Origin: Promethearchaeota archaeon
GTDB taxonomy: Archaea; Asgardarchaeota; Lokiarchaeia; Sigyniarchaeales; SOKP01
Direction of reading: 5' to 3'
Assembly (NCBI GenBank): GCA_048939995.1
Contig: JBHLOY010000024.1
Coordinates: 1 to 22,861 of the forward strand
DNA length: 22,861 nucleotides
Shown: in pieces, positions 2,296-22,793 of the stretch
How the letters are laid out: each line of letters begins with the position of its first letter
Position numbering within the stretch: the first letter of the stretch is position 1
Notes under the pieces: generated by a model
What the model saw: the letters and a program-made list of their open reading frames with translations, nothing else
Databases searched by the model: none
What the model was told of the DNA's origin: nothing
Made by a program: the position numbers and the translations under genes

Positions 2296-3822
2296 TTAAT
2301 CCTTTTTTCTTTGTAAAGCTTGCCTAAACTTTTCCAATTGTTTTCTAGGAGTAACAGTGGGACGGTCATATCTTTTTAATCTCTTCTTTATTCCAAAAAG
2401 ATATTTAGCAATATCTTTTAATTTCTCAGTGTCATAACGCATCATCATAGTAATAGTTTCCATTTGGGGGCTACCACCACCATGCAACCCTGCTACTTGC
2501 ATTACACCAGCTAAATCAGAAACAACTAAACCCTCAATTCCTTTAAAACACCTAAGCATGTTTTCAGGTTTAACTCTTGGATTTCTCTGTAAATATTTCA
2601 TAGCCAATTCTCCCACTTCTTCACTAAAAAAAGTTTCTTCGAATGGCAAAGTTGCAATTATTCCTCCTGAAAGGTCGGCTAGTATTTTATATTCTTCATA
2701 AATCATCTCACCTGCAAGTCGCCTACCTGCGTTTGTGAGAATTTCATCTGGTACCTGAGTTCCTGAGGGTGTTTTTTCAGAATGCTTTGCACTTGATTCT
2801 CCAGCAGCAAATACTAGCTCCGCGGTGCCTATAATATGAGATATCTTATCTCGTGCATGAGATGTATTTTCAATGCCATTATATTCTGCCACTAATGCTG
2901 CGGCACTGGCAATTACTTCAGATACTGCTGGCTTGCATCCAGTATAACTATGTCGGTGATAATGTGCAAACATTAAAGCTAGGAAACCTGCATATGGAGT
3001 TTGTCTTGGATCTCCATGACCATTTAAGAACACTCGTTCATTTGGGACAAAAACATCGTCAAAAATGATAAATGTTTCTGCATCACCAATTTCAGCTCCT
3101 GGGGCTTCAACATATTTGGTCTTCCTATAATTAGCAGGTCTCGTTAATAATTTAACTCCATCCCAATCAGTCGGAAGTGCAAATGCTACTGCGTAATCTT
3201 TATCCTCTGGACCCATATATCTGCAAGGAACAACAATCATCTCATCAGCATATGGAGTATTTGTAATGTTAACCTTACATCCCCTTACCACAATTCCATG
3301 CTCTCTAGTTTCAACCACACGTAAGTATTGGTCGGGATCTACCTGTTCATGAGGTCTTTTTAATCTATCACCTTTCGCATCAGTTTGAGCACAACTCGCC
3401 ACTAAATCATTCTCTTGAAAATATTCCATATATTTGTTAAATTTAATAAAGTAATCTGTACCTATTGCTTGATCTATTTCATATGTTACAACTGAAAGAG
3501 CATTAAGTGCATCTATTCCCATGCAACGCTGTATACATCCCCCACAACGATGACACAGTTGTCGAGTCATAAGTTGTTTATTGAGTAAGTCGTCAACACT
3601 CTGATGAATATGACAAAATCTGTTAATTTTCTTGCCAGTTAAATGACTTGTAGCTGTACAAACATCTTCCCATTCAGGATCGTGAGCTTTATCAAAAGTT
3701 TCTTTTATAATTCTCATTCCCCCTTTTAAACGAGGATCATCTCGACCGACTTTCTCTTCGCCAATATAAATATTTGGTTTCATTTTATATAATCTTTGAA
3801 CATAATCTTCATATGTCTTCAT
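2296..3822 (-). CDS. Divergent 4-hydroxybutyryl-CoA dehydratase (AbfD/HpaB-family) homologue with FAD and [4Fe-4S] motifs
   Basis: SHLTGKKINRF, CIQRC, TDAKGDR, HRHSYTGCK, HGGGSP. Colinear with 16674..18122. Confidence 0.85.
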   Translation of the reverse strand: MKTYEDYVQRLYKMKPNIYIGEEKVGRDDPRLKGGMRIIKETFDKAHDPEWEDVCTATSHLTGKKINRFCHIHQSVDDLLNKQLMTRQLCHRCGGCIQRCMGIDALNALSVVTYEIDQAIGTDYFIKFNKYMEYFQENDLVASCAQTDAKGDRLKRPHEQVDPDQYLRVVETREHGIVVRGCKVNITNTPYADEMIVVPCRYMGPEDKDYAVAFALPTDWDGVKLLTRPANYRKTKYVEAPGAEIGDAETFIIFDDVFVPNERVFLNGHGDPRQTPYAGFLALMFAHYHRHSYTGCKPAVSEVIASAAALVAEYNGIENTSHARDKISHIIGTAELVFAAGESSAKHSEKTPSGTQVPDEILTNAGRRLAGEMIYEEYKILADLSGGIIATLPFEETFFSEEVGELAMKYLQRNPRVKPENMLRCFKGIEGLVVSDLAGVMQVAGLHGGGSPQMETITMMMRYDTEKLKDIAKYLFGIKKRLKRYDRPTVTPRKQLEKFRQALQRKKD

Positions 3823-4533: not shown

Positions 4534-5517
4534 ATGAAAAATTCACTAACTCCAGAAGCAATCGTTTCCGACTTTTTAAATGGAAAATTACATCTTAATT
4601 TAGCAGTAGAGTTATTATTATCACTTTTAGAAAAGAGTGATAATTCCGAAATGCGAAGAAAAAGTATAATCGCTCTCGAAAAATTGGGAGTGAATGATTA
4701 TAAGATCTTTAAAATTTTAGAAAATTTTCTATTATCAGATGAAAATCCTTACGTACGTAGTGCTGCAGCTAAATTAATAGGTCAATCCTATCTTAAATAT
4801 GGGCAAAAAACATTATTATGGGTAATCCAACATGAAAAATCACCAGCAGTCATAAAAACTATGGTGAATATGATTGAAAAGGAACCTCCGCATTTTAGAA
4901 CAATTGCAGAAGAAATTTTTAATTGGCTTAAAAATTTTTCTTTCTATTTAGGGGTAATTCCAAATGAATCTAAATTTTTTTTGGATTTGGAAGTTTTTTT
5001 TTCCCAAAACAATATAGATTACGAAATTTCATCCCATACTTATCAATTTTATGAGAAAATAAGTCATATTAAAAATGACCAACCTTGGCTTATTATAAAA
5101 AATAAACACATTGAAATCTTAAATTTTAATTATTTAAATTGGTATTTTTTAAAAATTAATCAAGACATGATTGATTCCTTTATTAAAATGATAGATTTAG
5201 ATACTTTTCTTAATTTATATGAGAAGATTGAATTGAGAAGATTTAATGGAATTAGAATTATAAAATCATTAAAATATCTAAAAAACCTAAAAAAGTTAGT
5301 ATTAAGGGGAAATGGTATTGATACAATCCCTGAATTTTTGACAGATATCGAGAATCTTGAAGAATTAGACTTAAGTCATAACTCTATAAGAGAAATCCCT
5401 AATTCCATCATGAATCTTAAAAATTTGAAGATTTTGAAATTAAATAATAATAACCTTGAACAAACTACGTTTGAATTGAAGTCTTTTTTGAGTTCCTTAG
5501 AACTTGTTGATATCTAA
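4534..5517 (+). CDS. HEAT-repeat plus leucine-rich-repeat protein
   Basis: N-terminal SDNSEMRRKSIIALEKL and SDENPYVRSAAAKLI. C-terminal LxxLxLxxNxI repeats (LKKLVLRGNGI, LEELDLSHNSI, LKILKLNNNNL). Confidence 0.85.
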   Translation: MKNSLTPEAIVSDFLNGKLHLNLAVELLLSLLEKSDNSEMRRKSIIALEKLGVNDYKIFKILENFLLSDENPYVRSAAAKLIGQSYLKYGQKTLLWVIQHEKSPAVIKTMVNMIEKEPPHFRTIAEEIFNWLKNFSFYLGVIPNESKFFLDLEVFFSQNNIDYEISSHTYQFYEKISHIKNDQPWLIIKNKHIEILNFNYLNWYFLKINQDMIDSFIKMIDLDTFLNLYEKIELRRFNGIRIIKSLKYLKNLKKLVLRGNGIDTIPEFLTDIENLEELDLSHNSIREIPNSIMNLKNLKILKLNNNNLEQTTFELKSFLSSLELVDI

Positions 5518-5633: not shown

Positions 5634-7343
5634 ATGGAAGAAAAACCAAAAATTAATGGAGGAGATGTTTTGATAAAATGTCTCCTCGCTGAAAAAGTCA
5701 AATATATGTTTGGAATTATCGGTGGGCAATTTTTGAACATGTTTGATGCTATTTATAGATGGGGTCGTGAACAAGGCATTGAAACTGTCATGTTTAGGCA
5801 TGAACAAGCTGCTGCTCATGCAGCAGATGCATGGGCAAGATTAACTAATACTCCTGGCGTGTGTTTTGGAACAGCTGGACCTGGTGCTACCGATCTTATA
5901 CCTGGAGTAGCCGCTGCTTGGAGTGATAATATTCCACTCGTCGCTATTGTTAATCAAGTAAACAGTAAGTTTGATGATTTATTTACCTTGCAAGGAAATC
6001 TTGATCAAATAACTATGTTTAAACCAATTACAAAATATCAAAGAACTATTAGAGATGTAGAGAAAATCCCAGATGCTGTTCAGAAGGCATTTCGTGAAGC
6101 TACAGGTGGGAGACCTAGACCTGTCTTGTTGGAAGTAGTTGAGGATGCTTTTCTTGGTGAAATAGAAGAGGATCAAGTATCAATCAGGCCCCCAATTAAT
6201 TATCGATCGCTCAGCAAACCTTCTATTAGTGATGACTCGATTAAAAAATCAATAGATTTATTGATGGAAGCAGAAAGACCATTAATTATTTCTGGAGGAG
6301 GAGTCGCAAGGGCAGAAGCATGGAATGAATTAAACGAATTTGCTGAATTTTTGCAGACCCCTGTAATAACAAGTATTATGGGAATAGGAACAATTTCTAA
6401 TACCTCAAAATGTTTAGTTGATTCGTCAATTCAAGGATTTGGTAAAGAAATCTCTTATAGAGCTGATGTAATTTTAGCTCTTGGAACTAAATTTTCATTT
6501 ACTTTAGGTCATGGTGACGAGCCCTTTTTTAAAGATTCTCAGAAAATGATACAAGTAGATATCGACCCTATCATTATTGGAAGAGCTAAACCTATTACTT
6601 TAGGTATTGAAGGTGATTGTAGGATATACTTAAAAAAAATGCTTGAAGAAGTCAAAAAGAAAGGAAAGGTGGAAAAGAGAGATTGGATGGAACAAATTTT
6701 TGAAATGAAACAAAAATATATTGACAATTTTATGAAAAAAGCTTTAAAAGAGAAAATTCCAATTATTCCTCAAAGATTGGTTAAGGAAGTCTTAGATTTT
6801 ATGGATGAAGATGCAATTTTAGTTGTTGATGGTGGAGACATTGCTTGCCATACAGTTGAGCAAATAAATCTTCATAAGCCACGACCACCACTCTCAACCT
6901 TAATATCAATAGGAATGGGGCATTTAGGCACATCTATTCCATATGCAATAGGTGCTAAATTAGCTAAACCTGAAAAGCAAGTGATTGCTATAGCTGGAGA
7001 TGGTAGTTTTCTATTTAATGTCCAAGAATTAGAGTCAGCTGTCCGATTAGGCTTGAAGAATATGATCTTTGTTATAGCAAATAATCAAGCATGGGGTATG
7101 ATAAAATCTTGCCAAGATAAATATAAAAAAAAGCATTTTATTGATGTAGATCTACCAGATTTCGATTTTGCAAAATGTGCTGAAGGTTTTGACTGTTATG
7201 GCGAAACTGTGATAGATCCAAAGGAAATCAGGCCTTCTCTCGAGAGAGCTAAACAGTCAAATAAACCAGCTGTCATTAATATTAAAATTGCACAGGTTAT
7301 GTCAGATGGTACAAAACTAATGGCTTCAATGGGTATTCTCTAA
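5634..7343 (+). CDS. ThDP-dependent enzyme, acetolactate-synthase-like fold, ILVBL/2-hydroxyacyl-CoA-lyase-like
   Basis: RHEQAAAHAADAWARLT, TAGPG, GRPRPV, ThDP motif GDGSF...NNQAWG. It has LVVDGGD instead of the AHAS DVGQHQMW motif. Confidence 0.85.
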   Translation: MEEKPKINGGDVLIKCLLAEKVKYMFGIIGGQFLNMFDAIYRWGREQGIETVMFRHEQAAAHAADAWARLTNTPGVCFGTAGPGATDLIPGVAAAWSDNIPLVAIVNQVNSKFDDLFTLQGNLDQITMFKPITKYQRTIRDVEKIPDAVQKAFREATGGRPRPVLLEVVEDAFLGEIEEDQVSIRPPINYRSLSKPSISDDSIKKSIDLLMEAERPLIISGGGVARAEAWNELNEFAEFLQTPVITSIMGIGTISNTSKCLVDSSIQGFGKEISYRADVILALGTKFSFTLGHGDEPFFKDSQKMIQVDIDPIIIGRAKPITLGIEGDCRIYLKKMLEEVKKKGKVEKRDWMEQIFEMKQKYIDNFMKKALKEKIPIIPQRLVKEVLDFMDEDAILVVDGGDIACHTVEQINLHKPRPPLSTLISIGMGHLGTSIPYAIGAKLAKPEKQVIAIAGDGSFLFNVQELESAVRLGLKNMIFVIANNQAWGMIKSCQDKYKKKHFIDVDLPDFDFAKCAEGFDCYGETVIDPKEIRPSLERAKQSNKPAVINIKIAQVMSDGTKLMASMGIL

Positions 7344-7378
7344 TAATTTTAATTGAAAAACTTCCTATAGGGATTAAA

Positions 7379-8392
7379 TTGAAAGGGATATATTTTACAC
7401 AAATCAACAAAGTGGAGCTTAAAGACGATTTACCAAAACCTCAAATTCAAGCGGATGAGGTTTTAATCAAGGTGAAAATTTGTGGGATATGTGGATCAGA
7501 TATAGGATCCTTCTTAACTGGAGCTTTGGAGTCCCAACAAATAATTTTAGGACATGAGTTTTCCGGAGAGATAGTTGAACTTGGTGAGAGAGTTAAGAAG
7601 TTAAAACTGGGAGATCGAGTCACGGCTAATCCCAATATTCCTTGTTTAGAATGTAATTATTGTAGAGCAGGATTAGAATTCTTATGTATACATAATACTA
7701 TTGGCATAACTCTCAATGGAGCCTTAGCAGAATATGTCAAAATCAGGTCAGATAGAATTCATAAATTACCAAACTCAGTTTCATTTGAAGAAGCAGCTAT
7801 GGTAGAACCTATATCAAATGCTGTTCAAGCAGTTAAAATTTCGGGTTTTAAAATTGGTGATAATGCAGCTGTTTTTGGAGCGGGACCAGTTGGACTATTA
7901 GTTATTCAAGTACTCAAGAAAGCAGGAGCAAGTAATATCTATGTTATTGAACCTGTCGAATCTAAACATAAATTAGCTTTAGAATTTGGAGCCGATCAAG
8001 TTTTTCCTCCGGATAAATGGAGTCGAATTCTTAAACTTACAGATAAAATTGGACCAGATTTTATTTTTGATTGTGTAGCACTTCCAGAGACTATAATCAC
8101 CTCGCTTCAATTAGTTAAAAGGGGTGGTTTAATAATGGTCATAGGGATACATTCAGAGCCATTTGAAATGAGAGGAATACTTCAATTAATGTCTAAAAAT
8201 ATTACAATAAAAGGGATGTATTTAGCAGATCAAGATTCCTTTAGAACAGCTTTAAAATTATTAGAACAGAAGGAAATTGAAATTGATTCTATCATCACTA
8301 AGAAAATAAAATTAGACCAAGTGCCTGAAACTTTTAAAAATCTATCTATTGGTCTACATAATGATCTTAAGATTCAAGTAGAAATTAAGTAA
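7379..8392 (+). CDS. Zinc-dependent medium-chain alcohol dehydrogenase
   Basis: CGICGSD, GHEFSG, structural Zn site CLECNYC...C, GAGPVG Rossmann motif. TTG start. Confidence 0.9.
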   Translation: MKGIYFTQINKVELKDDLPKPQIQADEVLIKVKICGICGSDIGSFLTGALESQQIILGHEFSGEIVELGERVKKLKLGDRVTANPNIPCLECNYCRAGLEFLCIHNTIGITLNGALAEYVKIRSDRIHKLPNSVSFEEAAMVEPISNAVQAVKISGFKIGDNAAVFGAGPVGLLVIQVLKKAGASNIYVIEPVESKHKLALEFGADQVFPPDKWSRILKLTDKIGPDFIFDCVALPETIITSLQLVKRGGLIMVIGIHSEPFEMRGILQLMSKNITIKGMYLADQDSFRTALKLLEQKEIEIDSIITKKIKLDQVPETFKNLSIGLHNDLKIQVEIK

Positions 8393-8486
8393 TTATTAAT
8401 TTATAACTTATTTTTTTGTATATTTGTCTGAAAAAGAAAAAAAACAGACCGTTTCCTTGTTATTTCTATCAAAAATTTAGAAAAAA

Positions 8487-8494
8487 TTTATAAA
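8487..8494 (+). promoter_or_regulatory. Candidate archaeal BRE/TATA promoter of the acyl-CoA ligase gene
   Basis: GAAAAAA followed by TTTATAAA, about 50 nt upstream of the start. Confidence 0.45.
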
Positions 8495-8510
8495 TTCTAC
8501 TATCAGTAAT

Positions 8511-8541
8511 AATGATATTTACTAATATCGTAAATATTATT
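8511..8541. promoter_or_regulatory. Inverted repeat over the predicted TSS of the acyl-CoA ligase gene, candidate operator or 5' hairpin
   Basis: AATGATATTTAC-N7-GTAAATATTATT, with 11 of 12 positions paired. Confidence 0.4.
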
Positions 8542-10274
8542 TGGTGATAAAAATACAAAAAAGTCCTTATGATGAAAAAATATGGCTCAAATCTTATGAT
8601 AACCATGTTTCTCATTCTTTAGATTATCCTCGCGAGAATCTTGCAAAATTATTCGATAAAGCAATGGATAGATTCCCTAAGAGAGTTGCTTGTTACTTCA
8701 TGAAAAAGGTTATAACATTTGAGGAACTTAGAGATAAAATGCATCGATTTGCAACCTTTCTACAACAGAATGGTTTACAAAAAGGTGATCGAGTCGCGAT
8801 TAGCCTCCCAAATTGCCCTCAATATATGATAGCTCATTTTGGGACTATATTAGCTGGAGGTGTTGCTTCTGGATGTTCCCCTCTTCTTAGTCCTACTGAA
8901 TTGGCTTACCAAATTAACGATAGCGAATCTAAATTTTTTATTACGCTTGATGCAATCTATGAAAAAGTGGTTTTTAATATAATAGAGAAGCTGCCAAATT
9001 TAAAATCTATTATAACTACAAATGTATCTGATTTTATGGGGCTGGGAAAACTTCTAGTGTCTATTGCTAAGTTAATAGGTAAAATACCAAAAGGTAAGGT
9101 CAAACCTTATCCAGGTAAACAGATAGTTGATTTTCAAAAGGCTTTGGAATCTTCACCGAATATTAAAGAGGTTACTATAGACATAAAAAATGATCTTGCT
9201 TTACTCCAATATACTGGTGGAACTACAGGCTTACCAAAAGGAACAGAATTAACTCATTTTAATATTATTTCGAATATGCATCAAATTATTTCTTGGATAG
9301 GTATTGAAGTAGCAGAAGAGGGGCGAATACATCTTAGTGCTTTCCCTATGTTTCACCTTGCGGGTTTACAGATGAGCATGACTACTCTATATATTTCTGC
9401 TCCACAAATATTAATAGTAAATCCAAGAGATACTAAACATATCATAGAAGAAGTTATTGATAAACAACCAAAATTAATGGTAAACGTACCCACTCTCTAT
9501 TTATCTATAAAAAGTAATCCTTTAATGAAGAAGGTACCTGAAACTGCTTTAAATAACCTTGATGTCTACATATCTGGAGCAGCACCATTTCCAGCTGAAG
9601 CAATCAGAAATTTTGAAAAAGATATGAAGGCAGAAAATAAAGTTATGGAAGTATATGGAATGACTGAAACATCTCCTATTCTTACAGGAAATCCCTATTA
9701 TGGAACTAAGAAGATTGGAACAGTTGGTCTACCTGTTGCTGACACAGAAATTCGGATTGTAGATGTTGAAACTGGAGAACAAGTCGATCTTGGAAAACCG
9801 GGGGAGATAATCTGTAGGGGTCCTCAAGTTACAAGAGGGTATTATAATAAACCTGAGGCTACCGCAAAAACCATAATTGATGGTTGGCTTCACACTGGAG
9901 ATGTAGGTGTTATGGATGAAGATGGATATATTACTATTGTAGATAGAACAAAAGATATGTTAATTGTCTCTGGCTATAAAGTATATAGTGTTCATGTGGA
10001 AGATGTACTTACGAAGCATCCAGATATCGAAATGGTTGCTATCATTGGATTAAGTGACCCAGACCGCCCAGGAAGCGAACTGGTTAAAGCAATAGTCCAA
10101 CTTAAAGAGGGGGCTCAGCCTTCTGAGTCTACAAAAGATAGATTAAAAAAGTATGCCGCAGATCACTTATCTAAATATGAGAACCCTAAGATTTGGGAAT
10201 TTAGGGAGAGTTTACCACTTACTACAGTGGGGAAAGTCTTAAAACGGGCACTGAGAGAAGAAGCTAGCAAATAA
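8541..10274 (+). CDS. Long-chain acyl-CoA ligase (FadD-like AMP-binding enzyme)
   Basis: YTGGTTGLPKG, YGMTET, GEIICRGPQV, WLHTGDVG, IVDRTKDM, LPLTTVGKVLKR. Exact start uncertain (8541, 8544 or 8553). Confidence 0.92.
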   Translation: MVIKIQKSPYDEKIWLKSYDNHVSHSLDYPRENLAKLFDKAMDRFPKRVACYFMKKVITFEELRDKMHRFATFLQQNGLQKGDRVAISLPNCPQYMIAHFGTILAGGVASGCSPLLSPTELAYQINDSESKFFITLDAIYEKVVFNIIEKLPNLKSIITTNVSDFMGLGKLLVSIAKLIGKIPKGKVKPYPGKQIVDFQKALESSPNIKEVTIDIKNDLALLQYTGGTTGLPKGTELTHFNIISNMHQIISWIGIEVAEEGRIHLSAFPMFHLAGLQMSMTTLYISAPQILIVNPRDTKHIIEEVIDKQPKLMVNVPTLYLSIKSNPLMKKVPETALNNLDVYISGAAPFPAEAIRNFEKDMKAENKVMEVYGMTETSPILTGNPYYGTKKIGTVGLPVADTEIRIVDVETGEQVDLGKPGEIICRGPQVTRGYYNKPEATAKTIIDGWLHTGDVGVMDEDGYITIVDRTKDMLIVSGYKVYSVHVEDVLTKHPDIEMVAIIGLSDPDRPGSELVKAIVQLKEGAQPSESTKDRLKKYAADHLSKYENPKIWEFRESLPLTTVGKVLKRALREEASK

Positions 10275-10276
10275 AC

Positions 10277-10309
10277 TTTTTAACTATTTTTTTCTAACTC
10301 TTTTTTTTT
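10277..10309 (+). terminator. Oligo-T tracts, archaeal-type intrinsic terminator
   Basis: T5, T7 and T9 runs directly after the ligase stop codon. Confidence 0.5.
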
Positions 10310-10397
10310 GAACTAAGATTTAAAAAACTATATTAAGAAATTCATTGTATACTATAACCATAATAATGTAGTTTATTAAAAAAAGGAGTTGATTATA

Positions 10398-11678
10398 TTG
10401 GAAAATAAGAAAGGAGCTGTGCAATGCATAAATGATGAGATTCTGGCAAAGCTTTCTTTAAAAAACAGATATAAATTCTTGAATTATAATTTAATGACAT
10501 ATTTAAGTAAGGAGCATTTTGAATTCCTTAAACGAGCTCAAAAATTTTTTATAAATTTTGAAAAGAAATATAATATTACCCATAATGAAGATTTATATCA
10601 GTGGATTCCTGAAATCGGTAAAGAAGGCTTAATAACTCGGATGTATAATTTTGAAAATCTGGGTTTGAATTATGAACCTTATGGCTACACAGCTGAATTT
10701 ATGAGAGCCCTTGCTTCTGACTCCTTTGATCCTCAATTCACTATGGCTAGTGGAGCTAGTATTTTAGCTATAAGTCCCTTAATATTACATAATGATAATG
10801 TTGACATTCGACTAAGAGCCCTAAAAGAATTGGTGACAGGGGAGAAAATTGGTTGTATATGCATCACCGAACCAGAAAGAGGTTCAGATGCTGTTCATAT
10901 GCTTACTACATGTGAAGAGCAAGAGGATGGGAGTTTCATAGTAAATGGTGAAAAAATATATCAAACTAACGGTCCAAAAGCAGACTGGGCAGTAATATAT
11001 GCAGTAACCGAAAGAAATAATGGAAATACTATGGCACAATTCCTTGTTGACACTTCGTGGGAAGGCTGGAAAGCAGAAAGAGTAAACATTCCTTGGACTC
11101 CTAGAATGCATATTGGTAAAGAAACTTTTACTAATTTACGAATTCCAGCTGACTGTGTTCTAGGTAAGCCTGGAGATGGAAGATCTCATTTATTTGAGGG
11201 ATTAAACCTAGAACGATTGGGCATTGTTTGCCTTAACGCTTCTCAAGCTTGGAATGCTCTTACTCACGCATTCATTTATGCTAATATGAGAAAACAATTT
11301 GATGAAGTGATTTTAAAGTATCAAGGAGTAGGGTTCCCTTTGGCAGATTTATGGGCTGAAACAATGAATTTAACTTTAGCTGCATTAAATATAACTCAAA
11401 TGGTTGATAATAAGATGAAAGAACATGGAACACTACCAAAAGAATTTAATTTAACTCTAGGAGCTACAGCAGCTCAGTTAAAAAGTGTTAGTGCTAAATT
11501 ATGCGAACGAGTTGCTTATGAGTGTGCTAATCTTATGGGTGGTGCAGGAGTATGTGATAACACATTAATGCAAGATTTATTAGGAATAACTAGGATTCAG
11601 GAGATTGGCGGAGGAACACGTCAAATAATGCAATATGTTATGAGTTATGCTTTGAGAGCATTATTCAAGGCAATTTAA
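10398..11678 (+). CDS. Acyl-CoA dehydrogenase, IVD/LCAD-type catalytic arrangement
   Basis: ITEPERGSD, NGEKIYQTNG, RKQF, GLNLERL, EIGGGT. TTG at 10398 follows a GGAGTTGA SD-like motif (ORF track starts at 10389). Confidence 0.9.
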   Translation: MENKKGAVQCINDEILAKLSLKNRYKFLNYNLMTYLSKEHFEFLKRAQKFFINFEKKYNITHNEDLYQWIPEIGKEGLITRMYNFENLGLNYEPYGYTAEFMRALASDSFDPQFTMASGASILAISPLILHNDNVDIRLRALKELVTGEKIGCICITEPERGSDAVHMLTTCEEQEDGSFIVNGEKIYQTNGPKADWAVIYAVTERNNGNTMAQFLVDTSWEGWKAERVNIPWTPRMHIGKETFTNLRIPADCVLGKPGDGRSHLFEGLNLERLGIVCLNASQAWNALTHAFIYANMRKQFDEVILKYQGVGFPLADLWAETMNLTLAALNITQMVDNKMKEHGTLPKEFNLTLGATAAQLKSVSAKLCERVAYECANLMGGAGVCDNTLMQDLLGITRIQEIGGGTRQIMQYVMSYALRALFKAI

Positions 11679-11691
11679 CTTCACTTTATTA

Positions 11692-11700
11692 TTTTTTTTT
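11692..11700 (+). terminator. T9 tract after the acyl-CoA dehydrogenase gene
   Basis: Nine T residues starting 14 nt after the stop. Confidence 0.4.
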
Positions 11701-11765
11701 AATCTAATTACAAAGAATAACTTTAAACATTAAACTCAATATATCAAATTATAGTGTTATCAAAT

Positions 11766-12665
11766 ATGAAAGATTTAAATAATAGAAATTGTCTAATAAC
11801 TGGGGCTGCTAATGGAATTGGAAAATCTTTTGCCTTAGCTTTAGCTCGAGAAGGTATGAATTTATTTATTACTGATATTGATATAGAAAAGCTAGAAAAA
11901 GTTAAAAATGATATAAAAAATATTGGAGCTCAAGTTTATTCAGCTAAATGTGATGTTACGAAAATTAAAGACTTTCAAGATACTGCAAAACAATTTAATT
12001 CGAAATTAGGAGAATTAGACCTTCTTATTAATAATGCGGGAATCGTGATAGGAGGAAACATTTTCGAAATCACCTTGGATGATTGGAAAGATTTACTCGA
12101 TGTTAATTTATGGAGTATAATCCATTCACTAAAGGTATTTCTCCCAAAAATGGTTTCCCAAAGCCATGGTCACATTGTCAACGTTGCCTCTGCAGCAGGA
12201 GTGATAGGAGCAACAGAACCACTTCCTTATATTGCATCGAAATTTGCAGTTGTAGGATTATCGGAAGCATTATTTGGACAACTTTCTAGTTATGGAATAA
12301 ATGTATCTGTTGTTTTACCTTTATATGTTCGAACTAACATCTTTGAGAGTTGTAAAATCAAACATTCTCAAGAATTAATTGATGATGTTGGGGAAGAAAA
12401 ATTAAGAGAAATTTCTAAATCCCTCTTGAAAGACATGCAAAGTAAATCAATCCTTCCCGATCGGGCTGTTAAGAAATATATTCAAGGCATTAAAAATAAT
12501 CAACTGTATATATATGATAGTAAAGCAGTATTAAGTATATTAACTTTAAAAGGAACAAATCAACCCCACTTTGAACAAGTTTTGAAGGATTTAAACAAAA
12601 GTTATGAAGAAATACAAAGAAAACATTATTTAAAATATGGAATCAATATTGATGATTATAGATAG
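11766..12665 (+). CDS. Short-chain dehydrogenase/reductase, probably NAD-dependent
   Basis: TGAANGIG, acidic TDID, NNAG, Ser in VAS, YIASK. ATG at 11766 is preferred over GTG at 11754. Confidence 0.9.
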   Translation: MKDLNNRNCLITGAANGIGKSFALALAREGMNLFITDIDIEKLEKVKNDIKNIGAQVYSAKCDVTKIKDFQDTAKQFNSKLGELDLLINNAGIVIGGNIFEITLDDWKDLLDVNLWSIIHSLKVFLPKMVSQSHGHIVNVASAAGVIGATEPLPYIASKFAVVGLSEALFGQLSSYGINVSVVLPLYVRTNIFESCKIKHSQELIDDVGEEKLREISKSLLKDMQSKSILPDRAVKKYIQGIKNNQLYIYDSKAVLSILTLKGTNQPHFEQVLKDLNKSYEEIQRKHYLKYGINIDDYR

Positions 12666-12674
12666 GTTAGAAAA

Positions 12675-13490
12675 ATGAATTTGAATGATATACATGATAT
12701 AATGTATGAAAAGGAAGAAAATGGGATATGCACGGCAACTTTGAACATTCCAGAAAGGAAAAATGCCATGTCATTTGTGACCTTTTTAGAATTAGTTACA
12801 ATCTTGGATGATATGGAAGCTGATAAAAATGCCAAAATATTGATAATAACTGGAAATGGAGACTCTTTCTCTTCAGGAGGTTATTTTAATATGAATTTAC
12901 TTACCAAAGTTCCTGAAGAGATAATGAAGGATATAGATTTAGAGGATATCGCCCAGAAGAAATTATGTATGCGCATGTGGAACTTTTCAAAACCAATAAT
13001 CGCTGCTATAAATGGTTTAGCGGTTGGAGCTGGCTTTACGATGCCCTTGGCTGGTGCTGATCTAATATATATGGCAGAAGATGCGTGGATTGGATTTTAT
13101 TTTGCAAAACGCGCTGTTATGGCAGAATTTGCGGCCCATTTTGTATTACCACTATATATTGGATTTCAAAAAGCTAAGGAATTACTTTATTTTGGAAAGA
13201 AAGTAACTGCTCAAGAAGCCTTAGAACTTGGTCTGATTAATAAAGTAGTTCCAAAAGAGAATTTAATGCAATTTGCACGGGATCAAGCACTAAAGTTAGT
13301 TCCTCCGAAAGGACCGAGTTTATCAATCAAATTGATGAAAAAAACAATACACCAATATTTCAAAGAAATTTTATCAAAAACATTAGATTTAGAAAATCAA
13401 GGCTTAAGAAATCTACTAACAACCCATGACTTTCGAGAATCATTAAAAGCTTTAGGACAAAAAAGAGATCCAATTTTTAAAGGCAAATAA
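12675..13490 (+). CDS. Crotonase-fold protein, probably an enoyl-CoA isomerase (ECI2/PaaG-like)
   Basis: LNIPERKNA, FSSGG, KPIIAAINGLAVGAG, AQEALELGLINKVVP. It lacks both hydratase Glu residues and has a Glu in VMAEFAA. Confidence 0.88.
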   Translation: MNLNDIHDIMYEKEENGICTATLNIPERKNAMSFVTFLELVTILDDMEADKNAKILIITGNGDSFSSGGYFNMNLLTKVPEEIMKDIDLEDIAQKKLCMRMWNFSKPIIAAINGLAVGAGFTMPLAGADLIYMAEDAWIGFYFAKRAVMAEFAAHFVLPLYIGFQKAKELLYFGKKVTAQEALELGLINKVVPKENLMQFARDQALKLVPPKGPSLSIKLMKKTIHQYFKEILSKTLDLENQGLRNLLTTHDFRESLKALGQKRDPIFKGK

Positions 13491-13500
13491 AATTGAAAAT

Positions 13501-14091
13501 TCAATAAATTCTTAGATCTTTACCACATGATAAGCAGAAGTCAGCATCACTACTTATCAGATAACCACAATTAGTGCAATATTTTTTATTAACATTAAAT
13601 ATATTATCAACTAATTTTGAATTTTTATACTCATCCACTTCTCTTTCATAATCGCGGTCTTTTATAATTATCCCATTTTCAGTTGCAACAATATAGTCTT
13701 GAATGTTGTTAGGATTGATCTTAATTAGTATTCCAAAAATAAATGCTACTGTTAAAGTTGTGGCTAATGGTAAGATATTGAAGGGGAATTTGATATGAGG
13801 AATTGAAGGAACAAACGTGAAAAGTATAAATAATAATAGAGTAAAAAAGTTTAATAAAAATGTGACAGTAAATAACTGTTTAAGTCTTAAAAAGGTACTG
13901 AACTTTCTTTTGCAGGTTCTACAAACCGGAAATTTTGTCGAATAACTGCTAATTATACTTGTTGTTGTTCTAGAAAAAATACCTCCATCTATCAATTTTC
14001 CTTTCACATAACCAATTTGAAATTTCTCAAGAGGAACATCTGACCTTCGGCATTTTAGGCATTTTTTGGGAAAATCTTCATACCTAAGCAT
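13501..14091 (-). CDS. Membrane protein with N-terminal CxxC...CxxC, two TM helices and a C-terminal zinc ribbon
   Basis: CLKC, CRTC, two hydrophobic segments, CTNCG...FCLSCG. ATG at 14091 (track start TTG 14097). Confidence 0.75.
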   Translation of the reverse strand: MLRYEDFPKKCLKCRRSDVPLEKFQIGYVKGKLIDGGIFSRTTTSIISSYSTKFPVCRTCKRKFSTFLRLKQLFTVTFLLNFFTLLLFILFTFVPSIPHIKFPFNILPLATTLTVAFIFGILIKINPNNIQDYIVATENGIIIKDRDYEREVDEYKNSKLVDNIFNVNKKYCTNCGYLISSDADFCLSCGKDLRIY

Positions 14092-14093
14092 AA

Positions 14094-14780
14094 TCAAGGC
14101 TCCTGAATATACTTTCTAGCCAGAAATTTCGCCCATTTTGGAGTGACTCTTAATACAGCTTCTTTTAGTGAGGGAAAGTGTTTTTTGAATTCTTCATAAT
14201 CATTGTTATCCTTAATAAATTCATATTCTTCTTCACCCAGTTCTTTTTTAATTTTGTAATAGATCTTTGCTAGGCGATTAAGTCCTTTAGTATATCCTCT
14301 CTTTGTTTTTTCATTGATAACATAAGGAAGAAACTCAAAGTAGAACTTCCATGTTCTCATAACATAATCTTCCATAGTGGGCATCATTGTAAAGGTATAA
14401 ATTGTTAAACCCTTTTTAAACATAAATAAGCCTACATTTAATACTTCAACTTGATACCATGGAATATATCTAGAAGCCATAAGATGTGCTTTAGGTTCTT
14501 GGAATGCAATTCCATTTTTTGTAAAAAGAATATGAGATTGAAATGTTTGAGTTTGAGTCACTGGACCAGCTGGACCCTGAATAAGCCCAGAGAATAAAGC
14601 ACTATAAATAATATCCTCTCCTATGGGAATTACTTCTCGAACTTCAGAAAAATCGATTGGAACATAAAAATTGTCATCTACGCCACCTTTAATCTCCGTT
14701 TTTTCCAAGGATTCACCACAAGATGGGCAAAATTTAAGATTTCCCTCAATTTGATTTCCACAATTAGTACAAAATGGCAA
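14094..14780 (-). CDS. Zinc-ribbon protein with a possible PH-like domain
   Basis: MPFCTNCG...FCPSCG. HILFTKNGIAF...IPWYQV resembles the bacterial PH/GRAM strand pattern. Confidence 0.72.
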   Translation of the reverse strand: MPFCTNCGNQIEGNLKFCPSCGESLEKTEIKGGVDDNFYVPIDFSEVREVIPIGEDIIYSALFSGLIQGPAGPVTQTQTFQSHILFTKNGIAFQEPKAHLMASRYIPWYQVEVLNVGLFMFKKGLTIYTFTMMPTMEDYVMRTWKFYFEFLPYVINEKTKRGYTKGLNRLAKIYYKIKKELGEEEYEFIKDNNDYEEFKKHFPSLKEAVLRVTPKWAKFLARKYIQEP

Positions 14781-16673: not shown

Positions 16674-18122
16674 TTATTCTTTAATTTCAAGAATTTCTTT
16701 AACTAATTTCTTCTTTTCTTCTAAATTGGCTTGTCGTGAAATCATAATTCTCTGTGCTTGAGGTGAACCCGCACCGTGCATAGATTCTGTTCTGTAACTT
16801 ACAGATGCGACTCCCATTGTTAAGTTTTCGATGAAACGCAATACCTTATATCGATCTTCAGCACAAATACCTTGACAAGTTGTTAAATATTTTTCAATTA
16901 ATGGACCAACTTCTTTCGATTTGAGATCTGCTTCTGAAGGCATCGTACAGATTATTCCCCCTGCGATATCTTCAGCTAATCTCCCGATTTCATATGGGAA
17001 TCGAGTAACATTTTGTTTACATACGTTAGCTAATAGCATATCCATTTCATAGTTTCCTGCTTCTCTCTGGAAGCCTAATGAACTGCATGCGATACCACAA
17101 CTATACAATGTTTCATTTAGATGAGTCATTTCTACTAATTTATCTCTTACATGAGATGCATTATCAGTTCCATTATATTCTGATATTAATGCAGTTGCTC
17201 CGATTAAAACATCACCTACTCCTACTTTGCATCCACCATAAGATTGTCTATGAAATCCAGCAAATCTGTTAACCAATTCTCCAGAAAATTCAGTTTCACC
17301 CTTCATGAAAATGTTTTCATCGGGTACAAACACGTTATCAAAGACTACAAATATTTCTTGACCACCATACTTGAAATTTCCAATATCATATTTACCTTCT
17401 TCAACCTTTCGAGTATCACATGATTGTCTTCCATATATTAAGGTTATACCCTTTTCATTAGTATCAATTCCGAAACTTATTGCATACTCCTCTTCACCTG
17501 GCCTTAGTGCAAGTGTAGGCATAATAATAGCTCTATGAGAATTAAGAAATCCTGTTTGATGAACTTTTGCCCCTCTTACTATAATCCCCTTATCATTTTC
17601 GTCAATGATATGCAAATAGGCATCAGGATCTGGCTGATCTTTGGGTCTTTTGCTTCTATCTCCTTTTGTATCAGTCATAGCACCATCAACCATCAAATCT
17701 TGTCTTTGAACATCAATCCAATAATTCTTAAAGTTTTCATGATAATTAGATCCAGATTTTTTATCTATTTCATATGTGATACTATAAAGCGCGTTTGCTG
17801 CATCAAACCCAACACATCTTTGGAAACAACAAGCAGTATGTTGCCCCAATAGTCTTTGCATCTTAACTTTTTTAATTAGATCTTCCTTAGATTGGTGAAT
17901 ATGTGTAAAGCGATTGATAACATCACCTGTTAAATGAGATTTTGTAGTCATTAAATCCCTAAACTCTTCATTTTGAGCTAATTCGTAGATTTTCATTACA
18001 GTATTAATTGAAGGCCTTATAATGGGATGATTCCAGAATTCAGTAATCTTTTCGCCAAATAAATACAAATTAACTGGTCGTTTTATACTTTCCAAATACT
18101 CTTGAGGTGTTTTTAATGGCAT
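16674..18122 (-). CDS. abfD: 4-hydroxybutyryl-CoA dehydratase / vinylacetyl-CoA isomerase, canonical type
   Basis: CFQRC, TDTKGDRS, KVHQTG, GGQE, HRQSYGGCK and RTESMHGAGSPQAQ match the clostridial enzyme motifs. GAGGT SD upstream. Confidence 0.93.
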   Translation of the reverse strand: MPLKTPQEYLESIKRPVNLYLFGEKITEFWNHPIIRPSINTVMKIYELAQNEEFRDLMTTKSHLTGDVINRFTHIHQSKEDLIKKVKMQRLLGQHTACCFQRCVGFDAANALYSITYEIDKKSGSNYHENFKNYWIDVQRQDLMVDGAMTDTKGDRSKRPKDQPDPDAYLHIIDENDKGIIVRGAKVHQTGFLNSHRAIIMPTLALRPGEEEYAISFGIDTNEKGITLIYGRQSCDTRKVEEGKYDIGNFKYGGQEIFVVFDNVFVPDENIFMKGETEFSGELVNRFAGFHRQSYGGCKVGVGDVLIGATALISEYNGTDNASHVRDKLVEMTHLNETLYSCGIACSSLGFQREAGNYEMDMLLANVCKQNVTRFPYEIGRLAEDIAGGIICTMPSEADLKSKEVGPLIEKYLTTCQGICAEDRYKVLRFIENLTMGVASVSYRTESMHGAGSPQAQRIMISRQANLEEKKKLVKEILEIKE

Positions 18123-18210: not shown

Positions 18211-19269
18211 ATGTCAGAATTATATAGTAAAGAAAAAAAGCAAATTTGGAGAATAAGATTTAGGTTTTTATTCTTAGAGGTATTTTTTGCTTTTATTTTG
18301 ATATTTTTATTTTTAGCAGTTCTTCGTTATCTTATTTTTCCATTATTTGAAGATTTACTAATGTTTGGTGTATTATATTACATCATAAGAGCTATCGTAA
18401 TCTTCCTTATAATTCTATTTGTTTTATGGATTCAAGGGAAATTCATTACAGAAGGTAGTGAAAAGATAGAATTTACCCCAATGGAAGGTCAATTAAGACT
18501 GTATAAGATAACACGAAAGAATTTTAAATATCAAATTCTTTATGGATTTCTCCTCTTCTTTTTAGTTCTGGTACCTATAGAATTTATTACTTTCTACTTT
18601 ATGCCAGATTTGGTAGGGTATCAACTCGAATTCTTAGTATATGATCCATTTAATCTTTATTTATCTGAACCAAATTATCCACTATTTTTGCTTTATCTAA
18701 TTATTGTACAAATCTCAATTGCTTTTGCTCAAGAGACAATATATAGAGGACTGCTAGCTAAAAGGGGTAGTGATCACTTCTTTGAGATGTCTGCTGTAAT
18801 AATTTCCTCTCTTTCTTTTGGTTTGAAATCACTTATATTTTATTTCGATCCTATAAGTTCCTCCTTTTCTCCATTGACTCCAATCATTTGGCTAATTGAA
18901 TCCTTTATAATTGGAATAGTACTATCTATAGTCACTATTAGAAGAAAATGGTTATTACCTGCGATTATCGCGATCTTACTAAATAATATTCTCTTTTATC
19001 ATTTAATTTGGAACATATTACATGGGATAACATCCTACGTCTTATTATTATACCTATACCTTCCCTTATTAATTGGGAGCGTTATCTTATTTATTTGGCA
19101 ATATCCAAGAATACGAGAAAGTTTATCAATTGGAATAGGAACTCTCAAAACTTACTTGAAAAAAGAGGATAAAAAGGAAAAAACTACAACAGACAAAATT
19201 TTTCGATATCAAATTGACATTATTGTAGCAATAATCATTTTCCTTTTAGGCTTTATAATTTTAATTTAA
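18211..19269 (+). CDS. CPBP (Rce1/CAAX protease/Abi) family polytopic membrane protein with a degenerate active site
   Basis: About 9 TM segments. AQETIYRG, IISSLSFGLKS and LLPAIIAILLNN align to the EExxxR, FxxxH and HxxxN motifs. Confidence 0.78.
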   Translation: MSELYSKEKKQIWRIRFRFLFLEVFFAFILIFLFLAVLRYLIFPLFEDLLMFGVLYYIIRAIVIFLIILFVLWIQGKFITEGSEKIEFTPMEGQLRLYKITRKNFKYQILYGFLLFFLVLVPIEFITFYFMPDLVGYQLEFLVYDPFNLYLSEPNYPLFLLYLIIVQISIAFAQETIYRGLLAKRGSDHFFEMSAVIISSLSFGLKSLIFYFDPISSSFSPLTPIIWLIESFIIGIVLSIVTIRRKWLLPAIIAILLNNILFYHLIWNILHGITSYVLLLYLYLPLLIGSVILFIWQYPRIRESLSIGIGTLKTYLKKEDKKEKTTTDKIFRYQIDIIVAIIIFLLGFIILI

Positions 19270-19284
19270 TTAATAATTCAAATA

Positions 19285-20436
19285 ATGGTAAATAAGATGA
19301 CAGAAAATTTAAATGAAAGATATAAAAGCGCTGCAGAGATAATAAATAGAGCTGGTGAATTTGCTTATCCAATAACAAGTACTTTAATTAAAATTTTAAA
19401 GTATAATATTAATGAAGAAGATTTGGATATAATCTTCGGCTTTGCTAAACAGATTTCTCAAACGATGGATCAATTAAAAGAAAGTACTGAACTACGAGAA
19501 GATCAAATTCTAAAGAAAGTTGACTCTCTTGCGAAAAAGGGAGTAATTTTTAACCAACCTAATCGCCAAGGAGTAATGGTTTATAGATTATTACCCGTGG
19601 CTAGGCAATTCGAATATACATTCATGAAAACCTTAGACGATTCTGAGAAGTTTCGTACCCTAGCAGAACTATACCACAAACTCGATAAGGAAATTGAAGA
19701 ATTTATTCAATCTAATTATGATCAAGTTATTTCGACTCTAGATAAAAGATTACCAATCGATCGCACAGTATTAACTAGTTTTATTAATAAGGACACGGGG
19801 AAAGAGATTGAAATTGTAATTGATAAAAAAGTTGAAGTTCCGACTCAAGTTATCATACCTTCACAAAAAGTCGAAGAGATAATAAATAAATTCGAAGATA
19901 TAGCCGTTGGAAATTGTTTCTGCCGTCAACATAAAGATTTATTAGGAGATCATTGTAAACAAACAAACATTCGGGAAAATTGCTTTACATTGGGAAAATC
20001 TGCACGACATACTTCCGCACAAGGATTTTCTAGGTTAATTTCTAAAGAAGAAGCCCTAAAAATTTTAAAAGCTACAAAAGAAGATGGTTTAGTTCATAAA
20101 GCTTATCATCTTCATTCTGATATCACAAAAGAAGAAGTCGCGATTTGCAATTGTTGTTCTTGTTGTTGTTTAAATAGTCGAGATTTAATGGTTGGTCCCG
20201 TTGTTAATGCTAACAACTACTTAGCTGAAGTAAAAGAAGATAAATGCATTGGATGTGGAAATTGTATTGATATTTGCCATAATAACGCAATATCATTAAA
20301 TGACGATAATATAGCAGAAGTAGATGAGGAATATTGTATAGGATGTGGATTATGTGCCTATTTTTGCCCCGAGAATGCAATTTCTATGATAGAAGGTTTA
20401 AGATTCATTCGGATGATTCCTCCCCGTAAGAATTGA
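19285..20436 (+). CDS. Cys-rich Fe-S protein with an N-terminal HTH-like region and a C-terminal 2x[4Fe-4S] ferredoxin domain
   Basis: CFCR...C...C, ICNCCSCCC, CIGCGNCIDIC, CIGCGLCAYFCP. Confidence 0.85.
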   Translation: MVNKMTENLNERYKSAAEIINRAGEFAYPITSTLIKILKYNINEEDLDIIFGFAKQISQTMDQLKESTELREDQILKKVDSLAKKGVIFNQPNRQGVMVYRLLPVARQFEYTFMKTLDDSEKFRTLAELYHKLDKEIEEFIQSNYDQVISTLDKRLPIDRTVLTSFINKDTGKEIEIVIDKKVEVPTQVIIPSQKVEEIINKFEDIAVGNCFCRQHKDLLGDHCKQTNIRENCFTLGKSARHTSAQGFSRLISKEEALKILKATKEDGLVHKAYHLHSDITKEEVAICNCCSCCCLNSRDLMVGPVVNANNYLAEVKEDKCIGCGNCIDICHNNAISLNDDNIAEVDEEYCIGCGLCAYFCPENAISMIEGLRFIRMIPPRKN

Positions 20437-20466: not shown

Positions 20467-21327
20467 TTAATTTACTACTACATAAGCATTACCTAATACT
20501 ATTCCTCCTCGCTCAGTTCGTACTTGAATAATATAACGTCCATTAAGTTTCCATCCTTCTGTAGTTAAGGTTTCTCCTGGATAAACCTCGCTAGTAAATC
20601 TTGCTTTAAATTCTTTAAATCGCTCCAAATTTCCATTACAAGCTCCATAAATAATTGCACGAGTAGCAAAACCATATGTACATAATCCATGGAGGATAGG
20701 ACCTTTAAATCTGCCACTTCTACTAGCAAATTCAGGATCTATATGCAATGGATTTAAATCTCCGGTAAGTCTATACAATGCTGCTTGATTTTCCTGAGTT
20801 TTATAGGATATGGTGAAATCTGGTCTTGTATTTTCGGGAGGTTTTAATGGTTCTGTTTTAGGTCCTGATTCTCCACCGAATCCACCGCCCCCAAGATAAA
20901 AAAATACATATTTTGTATCAAATATAGGTTCACTTTCTTTGCTCTGACCAGAAACTTTCATATGAATAACCGCAGCATTTCCCTTATCAAAGATATTTTC
21001 AACTTCTGCTTGGCATAGTATCTCACCAGAAGGAGAAAAATGTTTATAGATTTTAATTGATTGCTCCCCGTGCACAAAGTGGGAGAAATCTATTTTGCCA
21101 AGCTTCTGCAGCTGGAGAGCTGCTCCTGCAACTATACAAGCATAACTAGGGAAAACCTTCAATTTATCAGTGAAATTCTCATATAAAAATTGTAGCTCAT
21201 CAATTTTGGCTCCAATACCTAAAGCATAAAGCACAACATCTTTCCAATTATATTTAAAAAGAACTTCAGGAAATTTTTTTCCTATCACATCCAGATTTAA
21301 TCCAGACAATATTTCTTCATTCCTCAT
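20467..21327 (-). CDS. (R)-specific enoyl-CoA hydratase 2 (MaoC double hot-dog, like the MFE-2 hydratase domain)
   Basis: LYALGIGA, VHGEQ, hydratase-2 motif YRLTGDLNPLHIDP, PILHGLCTYG, VYPGETL. Confidence 0.9.
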   Translation of the reverse strand: MRNEEILSGLNLDVIGKKFPEVLFKYNWKDVVLYALGIGAKIDELQFLYENFTDKLKVFPSYACIVAGAALQLQKLGKIDFSHFVHGEQSIKIYKHFSPSGEILCQAEVENIFDKGNAAVIHMKVSGQSKESEPIFDTKYVFFYLGGGGFGGESGPKTEPLKPPENTRPDFTISYKTQENQAALYRLTGDLNPLHIDPEFASRSGRFKGPILHGLCTYGFATRAIIYGACNGNLERFKEFKARFTSEVYPGETLTTEGWKLNGRYIIQVRTERGGIVLGNAYVVVN

Positions 21328-22701: not shown

Positions 22702-22793
22702 TCTATTTTCACTCTTGTTTATAACATTTTTTATTGTAGAAAATTTCATTTATTATAAAATTTATTGAGTTGACAAAATTGGAGTAAGACTAT

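Follow-up and report, generated by a model that had tools for sequence, protein, structure and literature searches.

A six-gene run in a Lokiarchaeia genome probably comprises two adjacent modules, a ThDP enzyme-dehydrogenase pair and an acyl-CoA entry unit

Do the six co-oriented genes at positions 5634-13490 of a 22,861-nt stretch of Lokiarchaeia DNA encode one pathway? The stretch, hereafter the window, is the whole contig C30 of genome G000, a Promethearchaeota metagenome-assembled genome (MAG) of 3.75 Mb and 98% completeness. Below, G, C, and L denote genomes, contigs, and loci, and g and f denote genera and families of the comparison set. All six plus-strand open reading frames (ORFs) are present over that span, and encode a thiamine diphosphate (ThDP)-dependent enzyme, a medium-chain dehydrogenase/reductase (MDR), an acyl-CoA ligase, an acyl-CoA dehydrogenase (ACAD), a short-chain dehydrogenase/reductase (SDR), and a crotonase-fold protein (Table 1). 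The first-pass annotation had assembled them into one oxygen-independent route around a 2-hydroxyacyl-CoA lyase (HACL). A run of such genes is unsurprising by itself, because G000 holds about 16 ligases, 12 ACADs, 17 crotonases, 11 SDRs, 8 MDRs (among 3355 ORFs), and three ThDP enzymes of this fold; dozens of such genes are expected in a lipid-degrading Loki genome, and the six-gene pathway as proposed is unlikely. We conclude with good confidence that the run instead consists of two neighbouring modules within a conserved stretch of the chromosome. Module A comprises the ThDP enzyme and the MDR, and module B the ligase, the ACAD, and the crotonase. This split is supported by the comparative data, in which the ThDP gene keeps MDR and SCP2 partners and the trio of module B recurs without a ThDP gene.

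The nearest loci are found in Lokiarchaeia MAGs at 62-90% identity. Over 42 loci, whose windows are unequal in extent and which include non-independent kin and two loci from some genomes, the ThDP gene is accompanied by MDR in 33, HEAT/LRR in 29, ACAD in 28, crotonase in 23, ligase in 22, pyrG in 22, the TrmB-like gene in 20, Rab in 17, and SDR in 5. The usual order in genus g1 is ThDP-MDR-FadD-ACAD-ECH, but it is only as usual there as the unrelated flanks, and the HEAT/LRR gene is linked to the ThDP gene as tightly as the ACAD gene is. Many g12 genomes retain the ThDP-ACAD linkage, and g20 has a looser form of it. In g15 and g16 the two genes are apart, by 137 kb on one contig in G074, and one g15 genome (L142) keeps FadD-ACAD-ECH-pyrG with neither a ThDP nor an MDR gene. 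Hence, the expected co-localisation is borne out within g1 and partly within g12 and g20, but it is lost outside these three genera, and the flanks are about equally syntenic. At L048 (G010), the ThDP, LRR, and membrane genes are 64, 52, and 49% identical, respectively, while their neighbours are at 84-95%, which suggests that one of the two lineages had this block of three genes replaced locally.

The gaps between the six genes are, in order from ThDP to crotonase, 35, 148, 114, 75, and 9 nt. Tracts of T7-T9 lie behind the MDR, ligase, and ACAD genes, and none behind ThDP or SDR. Genome-wide, a T-tract follows 7 of 532 (1.3%) co-oriented genes spaced by less than 30 nt, and 43 of 284 and 195 of 992 (15-20%) at wider gaps. 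The likely units, judged from these tracts, are thus ThDP-MDR, ligase, ACAD, and SDR-crotonase, which agrees with the earlier suggestion of several transcription units. The run does not resemble a single operon: gaps of 75-148 nt with T7-T9 tracts lie at three joints, the tracts divide the run at the same joints as the comparative module boundaries, and the modules are apart in other lineages. A scan with sigma-70 promoter and stem-loop terminator models, which are ill-suited to archaea, gave a chance-level signal and was set aside.

We then inspected the ThDP enzyme. In trees built with FastTree (SH-like supports only), it groups with Oxc and relatives in the superclade of oxalyl-CoA decarboxylase (OXC) and HACL with a support of 1.0, far from acetohydroxyacid synthase (AHAS). 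Its earlier description as lyase-like rather than an acetolactate synthase is therefore sound, as it lies outside the AHAS clade and below all AHAS cut-offs shown (388 bits versus an NCBIfam cut-off of 538), and the residues diagnostic of AHAS are replaced: the second-substrate Lys is E170, and the Arg of the RFDDR motif is lost (KFSFT). The subfamily is nonetheless auto-annotated as acetolactate synthase. In G000, ilvH has no match and ilvC has only weak off-target KARI matches. The sole ilvD-like gene of G000 adjoins a ThDP paralogue on contig C23; this paralogue was rejected as AHAS and groups in the tree with an inositol-linked haloarchaeal enzyme. An IolM/IolD-type inositol function of module A was also rejected, since IolM, although the top NCBIfam match, scores 203 against a cut-off of 450. 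A short TPP_enzyme_N match on C28, beside a CoA-transferase III gene, was tried as Oxc and is, by size and motif, more probably a split, two-gene ComD/E-like pair.

The ThDP enzyme shares the three-domain fold (TM about 0.88) with HACL/S (8VZJ, 8VZA, and 6XN8), AcHACL (7PT1), and OXC, at an identity of about 24-29%. It also shares with HACL/S and OXC the ThDP-activating Glu (E57, in 117/117 proteins), the active-site Gln (Q120, 116/117), and the nucleotide-site Arg (R160 of the ADP site, 116/117), while the second ADP-site Arg is a Lys (Lys286) in most homologues. The acyl-CoA site differs. The ApbHACL/S structure has two acyl-CoA arginines, R260 and R400 (PMC11271303); in AcHACL, R273 and R417 are among the CoA contacts, and E493 is the acid/base (PMC8760513). 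Both arginines are visible at the matching positions in DhcHACL, TbHACL, AcHACL, and an annotated Acetobacter Oxc. None of 105 homologues has Arg at the R260/R273 site (G, A, V, I, or S instead), and none of 105 has it at the R400/R417 site (I, V, M, or other; V408 in the window enzyme). In a sister subfamily, the CoA-site arginines are absent from 11/11 scored proteins. The R400/R417 site alone is a weaker test, because a frc-linked actinobacterial Oxc-like protein lacks this Arg too. The position of the acid/base Glu (E493 in AcHACL, E557 in HACL2) is occupied by I490, with C493 and Q494 one turn on, and a loop is inserted at the first CoA site. Invariant or nearly so instead are Q32, E170, D402, E409, H430 (mostly), and Q494. 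By the features tested, the ThDP enzyme is not a member of the HACL family, though its chemistry may be related. The proposal of one pathway around such a lyase is thus not supported: the CoA arginines and the catalytic Glu are absent, and the lasting partners are MDR and SCP2, not the ligase, the ACAD, or the isomerase.

We nevertheless considered that the enzyme is a genuine 2-hydroxyacyl-CoA lyase whose CoA site has been rebuilt. Its chains would arrive already 2-hydroxylated, for example from phytosphingosine or 2-hydroxy fatty acids, so that no hydroxylase would be needed. The superclade placement, the retained R160 and K286 of the ADP site, and the adjoining ligase are consistent with this reading, and in mammals phytosphingosine is converted to a 2-hydroxy C16 acid that is cleaved by HACL2 (PMC10398889). 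It also draws on a sphingosine-1-phosphate lyase (SPL)-like gene on C3 of G000 (C3:32778-34115; L182:8778-10115, minus strand). This gene is 42% identical to a Thermogymnomonas homologue (500 bits to 3MAD), which is divergent from an SCP2-ThDP pair. However, the enzyme has neither of the CoA arginines nor the E493-type acid, and the ligase lies outside the conserved module. At E<=1e-90, 29 of the 55 other f1 genomes yielded an SPL-like gene, and outside f1 the Asgard families searched yielded none, including f10, f22, and f25, which carry module A; physical linkage of SPL-like and ThDP genes was sought in the Asgard genomes compared and found in none. We consider this reading rather unlikely.

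The structural model of the ThDP enzyme (pLDDT, the predicted local distance difference test score, 89.8) has benzaldehyde lyase (BAL)/formolase as its top match (2AG0, 2UZ1, and the Herbiconiux 8Y7S; 25-27% identity), with Z of 44.5-45.4 and a root mean square deviation of 2.1-2.2 over 545 aligned residues. HACL/S follows at Z 44.2, within about 1 Z, so the structure search cannot separate BAL from HACL. BAL performs CoA-independent acyloin cleavage, which would be the same chemistry as that proposed below for module A. Unlike BAL, module A has no aromatic context, and its partners are MDR and SCP2.

The partnership of ThDP enzyme and MDR extends well beyond the Loki family. In the window MDR, the ligands of both the catalytic and the structural zinc are present, as is an acidic residue typical of NAD use. 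Among solved proteins, it is closest to (R,R)-butanediol, ketose/sorbitol, and threonine dehydrogenases, whose substrates carry a secondary alcohol beside another polar group. The sister ThDP subfamily (39-44% identity, joined at a support of 0.98) occurs in families f10, f11, f15, f16, f21, f22, and f25. In f10, ThDP-MDR-SCP2 genes touch each other in 6/6 loci, and f21 has the same arrangement (L162-L167 and L173 for the two families; further loci are L177 and L180). The ligase-ACAD-isomerase trio is never beside the sister-subfamily ThDP genes in the Asgard families sampled. The slot beside the ThDP gene is filled by at least two MDR subfamilies. The 337-aa MDR is swapped in place for a 403-aa subfamily in L031, L055, L078, L137, and L139; the 403-type stands beside ThDP in 3/4 f25 loci and one f22 locus, and thus recurs from Loki to f25 and to a Dehalococcoidia-named cluster with ThDP-MDR(409). 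In a Helarchaeota MAG, a pair of ThDP genes is divergent from the MDR orthologue and a 403-aa MDR, and another MAG of the wider collection has MDR-ThDP-SCP2. The SCP2 of the Thermogymnomonas locus is 34-41% identical to the f10 SCP2s. Several other sister ThDP sequences have no MDR or SCP2 partner, and some of these neighbourhoods lie on short contigs. ThDP genes are also tandem duplicated up to quadruplicated (L055, L062, L064, L074, L084, L169, and G102:C447), and the tandem copies differ in substrate-facing segments.

Taken together, gene identities, residues, and linkage lead us to infer, tentatively and at somewhat under even probability, that module A pairs a dehydrogenase with a CoA-independent acyloin or 2-hydroxyaldehyde lyase for a lipophilic substrate, and that its neighbour, module B, is an ordinary acyl-CoA entry module. 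The MDR would interconvert a vicinal diol and an alpha-hydroxy carbonyl. The ThDP enzyme would add to the carbonyl and split the neighbouring C-C bond into two aldehydes in the manner of benzaldehyde lyase, one of them formaldehyde in the case of a terminal diol. In the lineages that have it, SCP2 would deliver the greasy, non-CoA substrate. The aldehydes might be passed via AOR or Fe-ADH and a ligase into acyl-CoA metabolism, while module B would activate, dehydrogenate, and isomerise acyl chains. A loose metabolic link between the modules is plausible, because aldehydes from module A could reach module B through AOR.

Several points weigh against this picture. SCP2 is absent from the window locus, the terminators are predicted from T-tracts only, and the persistence of the five-gene order throughout g1 and, in part, in g12 and g20 would allow the modules to be functionally coupled to some degree. 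About one third of the homologues have a Lys one position from the R260 site, where the C5 paralogue has an Arg, and CoA could bind through residues other than those scored. The lead of BAL over HACL is a tie. In addition, no characterised homologue of the ThDP enzyme exceeds about 30% identity.

Module A could also be fermentative, with a 2-oxo-acid decarboxylase or carboligase and a dehydrogenase producing alcohols (Ehrlich-like) or acetoin and diols, by which a peptide fermenter would dispose of electrons. In favour of this, the MDR is similar to butanediol dehydrogenase, AOR and Fe-ADH genes flank the ThDP gene in one f11 locus, and genes for pyruvate dehydrogenase (PDH)/acetoin-dehydrogenase-like E1 alpha, E1 beta, and E2 and a lipoate ligase come right after ThDP-MDR-SCP2 in G126 (L173:10178-14201). 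The replacement of the two AHAS residues that hold the second 2-oxo acid argues against this function, the SCP2 linkage points to a lipophilic substrate, and the PDC and IPDC families are not among the near matches. We regard fermentation as a minor possibility.

If module A is a lyase pair as favoured above, it could serve across Asgard archaea as an oxygen- and CoA-free counterpart of alpha-oxidation, although we think this quite unlikely. An SCP2-delivered long-chain 1,2-diol or 2-hydroxyaldehyde would yield an n-1 aldehyde and formaldehyde, and its source might be sphingoid bases via the SPL-like lyase or monoalkyl glycerol ether lipids. Anaerobic sediment archaea would then have an undescribed way of recycling lipids that block beta-oxidation. 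Such shortening of hydroxylated lipids with neither oxygen nor CoA would supply a missing step of lipid turnover in anaerobic sediments, as well as a new C1-handling biocatalyst; the pair consists of two soluble proteins. What is noteworthy is an uncharacterised ThDP lyase-class subfamily in many Asgard families, often tandem-duplicated, which keeps its MDR/SCP2 partnership across phyla. No paper on this subfamily was found in a literature search that left most subscription journals outside its scope.

We next describe module B. The ACAD does not exceed 30% identity to any of the PDB and plasmid ACADs compared, or 29% to IVD, LCAD, and MbtN. In an alignment with bacterial IVD, it has the helix-G Glu275 and a Gly at both MCAD Tyr375 and Glu376 positions, and its earlier assignment as IVD/LCAD-type is confirmed in this respect. 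It belongs to a clade expanded in its family, with three to six related copies per genome being common; 9 of the 12 ACADs of G000 have the helix-G Glu, and at C17:22658-23962 an ACAD of the same clade is broken into two ORFs. The Gly at the Tyr375 site is constant in the ACAD orthologue group, while the paralogues at 57% identity have Val or Ile, which is a mild hint in the alignment of a special pocket. The helix-G catalytic Glu is common to this ACAD, IVD, LCAD, and MbtN, and the Gly at the Tyr375 site to this ACAD, IVD, and MbtN. The signature is therefore neither diagnostic of IVD nor branch-specific, as MbtN shows both features, and its substrate is a long-chain acyl-ACP. LCAD, which shares the Glu, takes straight, unsaturated, and branched chains (PMC10925408). 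Different from the setting of IVD, no methylcrotonyl-CoA carboxylase (MCC) was found in G000: the biotin carboxyltransferase PF01039 has no match in this 98% complete genome, and the control matched in 12/14. Since none was found, the leucine (MCC) and Atu routes both stop at the 3-methyl-enoyl-CoA, and both were ruled out after the ACAD. The AtuA search was silent in the control genomes. Should branched chains be used, the likelier bypass would be hydration and a retro-aldol cleavage by the thiolase-fold/DUF35 proteins.

In the crotonase, neither hydratase glutamate is present, and the position of PaaG Asp136 is taken by Glu151, in agreement with its earlier designation as isomerase-type. The single acid site is that of PaaG/ECI2-type isomerases, while the NCBIfam PaaG match is below the cut-off (123 versus 345 bits). 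Unsaturated fatty acids routinely call for an isomerase of this type. A second g12 locus (L127-L138) encodes an ACAD (78% identical to the window ACAD), FadD (56%), and ECH (61%) with no ThDP gene. After this trio come genes for a CrtI-like flavoprotein, an FNR/2Fe-2S reductase, SCP2, and Fe-ADH, plus AOR in one case; two thiolase-fold genes and one for a DUF35 OB-fold protein are oriented divergently. The trio is complete in nine of these loci, the ACAD orthologue being part of the island in g12, and it also occurs without a ThDP gene in g15. G000 carries the same island on C11:267-298 kb (L102), with paralogues of the ligase and the crotonase. As the trio recurs in the g12 island without ThDP, in another order and context, it is a unit of its own. 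We infer that acyl chains that are long, unsaturated, or branched enter metabolism through module B, which is paralogous to part of the C11 island. Of the branched-chain lipid context proposed earlier, the lipid setting stands through the paralogous trio, but the IVD signature is not branch-specific and the carboxyltransferase is missing.

The thiolase-fold and DUF35 proteins beside the paralogous trio, the secondary-alcohol type of the MDR, and ketone formylation as proposed for acetone in Desulfococcus biacutus (PMC7888143) allow another arrangement. The ThDP enzyme would formylate methyl ketones arising downstream of module B by retro-aldol cleavage of 3-hydroxy-3-methylacyl-CoA, with the MDR balancing ketone and secondary alcohol. 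This is highly improbable, for it requires a formyl-CoA site, which is missing here, no mutase was recognised in the neighbourhoods examined, and the bacterial precedent reaction itself was not shown in vitro (PMC7888143).

Could the six genes still form one oxygen-independent alpha-oxidation route past the 3-methyl branches of phytanyl or amino-acid skeletons? The gene order kept in g1 and partly in g12 and g20, the trio in the lipid island, and the invariant IVD-like Gly would fit. Against it stand the failed HACL tests, the internal T-tracts, the separation of the modules in g15, g16, Helarchaeota, and the other Asgard families sampled, and the lack of the carboxyltransferase, so that neither the MCC nor the Atu route follows the ACAD. 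An ACAD of the IVD type, moreover, performs beta-dehydrogenation and cannot stand as an alpha-oxidation step. Phytanoyl-CoA 2-hydroxylase (PhyH, PF05721) has no match in G000, and the control genomes gave none either. The host lineage is anaerobic, unlike the setting of mammalian alpha-oxidation. The mammalian phytanate pathway comprises a ligase, PHYH, HACL1, and an aldehyde dehydrogenase (PMC10398889); the window shares with it a ligase and a ThDP lyase-class gene, but no hydroxylase was found, the cluster has no aldehyde dehydrogenase, and the lyase lacks the CoA site. We hence judge the single route very unlikely. The hydratase-2 and thiolase genes counted as nearby do exist, but they lie on the opposite strand, well beyond the run.

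Table 1. Features of the window discussed in the text, with their positions
Feature	Position	Strand	Remark
HEAT/LRR protein	4534-5517	+	Unrelated flank used as synteny control
ThDP-dependent enzyme, uncharacterised Asgard-centred lyase-class subfamily; module A	5634-7343	+	E57, Q120 present; HACL CoA arginines, AHAS Lys/Arg absent
Zn-dependent MDR, polyol/butanediol/threonine dehydrogenase class; module A	7379-8392	+	35 nt after ThDP
T7 tract, likely terminator of ThDP-MDR unit	8411-8417	+	
FadD-like long-chain acyl-CoA ligase; module B	8541-10274	+	58% paralogue in C11 lipid island
T7 (10287) and T9 (10301) tracts, likely terminator behind ligase	10287-10309	+	
ACAD, helix-G Glu275 and IVD-like Gly; module B	10389-11678	+	
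T9 tract, likely terminator behind ACAD	11692-11700	+	
SDR, accessory	11754-12665	+	Orthologue in 5/42 related loci
Crotonase fold, isomerase type; module B	12675-13490	+	61% paralogue in C11 island
Hydratase-2	20467-21327	-	7 kb from six-gene run, past pyrG and abfD
Thiolase	21421-22749	-	7 kb from six-gene run, past pyrG and abfD

The ThDP enzyme, MDR, ligase, ACAD, and crotonase all score below every listed NCBIfam cut-off, and their identity to solved proteins, where checked, is at most about 30-35%; plasmid searches gave no match above 34% identity. Upstream of the run, a Rab-like GTPase gene is followed 4 nt on by a TrmB-like gene (869-2252), and the pair is kept in relatives. Two HpaB/AbfD-family (4-hydroxybutyryl-CoA dehydratase-like) paralogues, 35% identical to each other, flank the cluster at 2296-3822 and 16674-18122, and a third is on contig C16. 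Positions 18211-20436 hold a CAAX-protease-like membrane gene and a gene for a 4Fe-4S protein; G000 has many paralogues of the latter, and one of these sits ahead of the C5 ThDP paralogue. The slot between the crotonase gene and pyrG is occupied by two minus-strand zinc-ribbon genes (13501-14780), and by a DUF1846 gene in most relatives.

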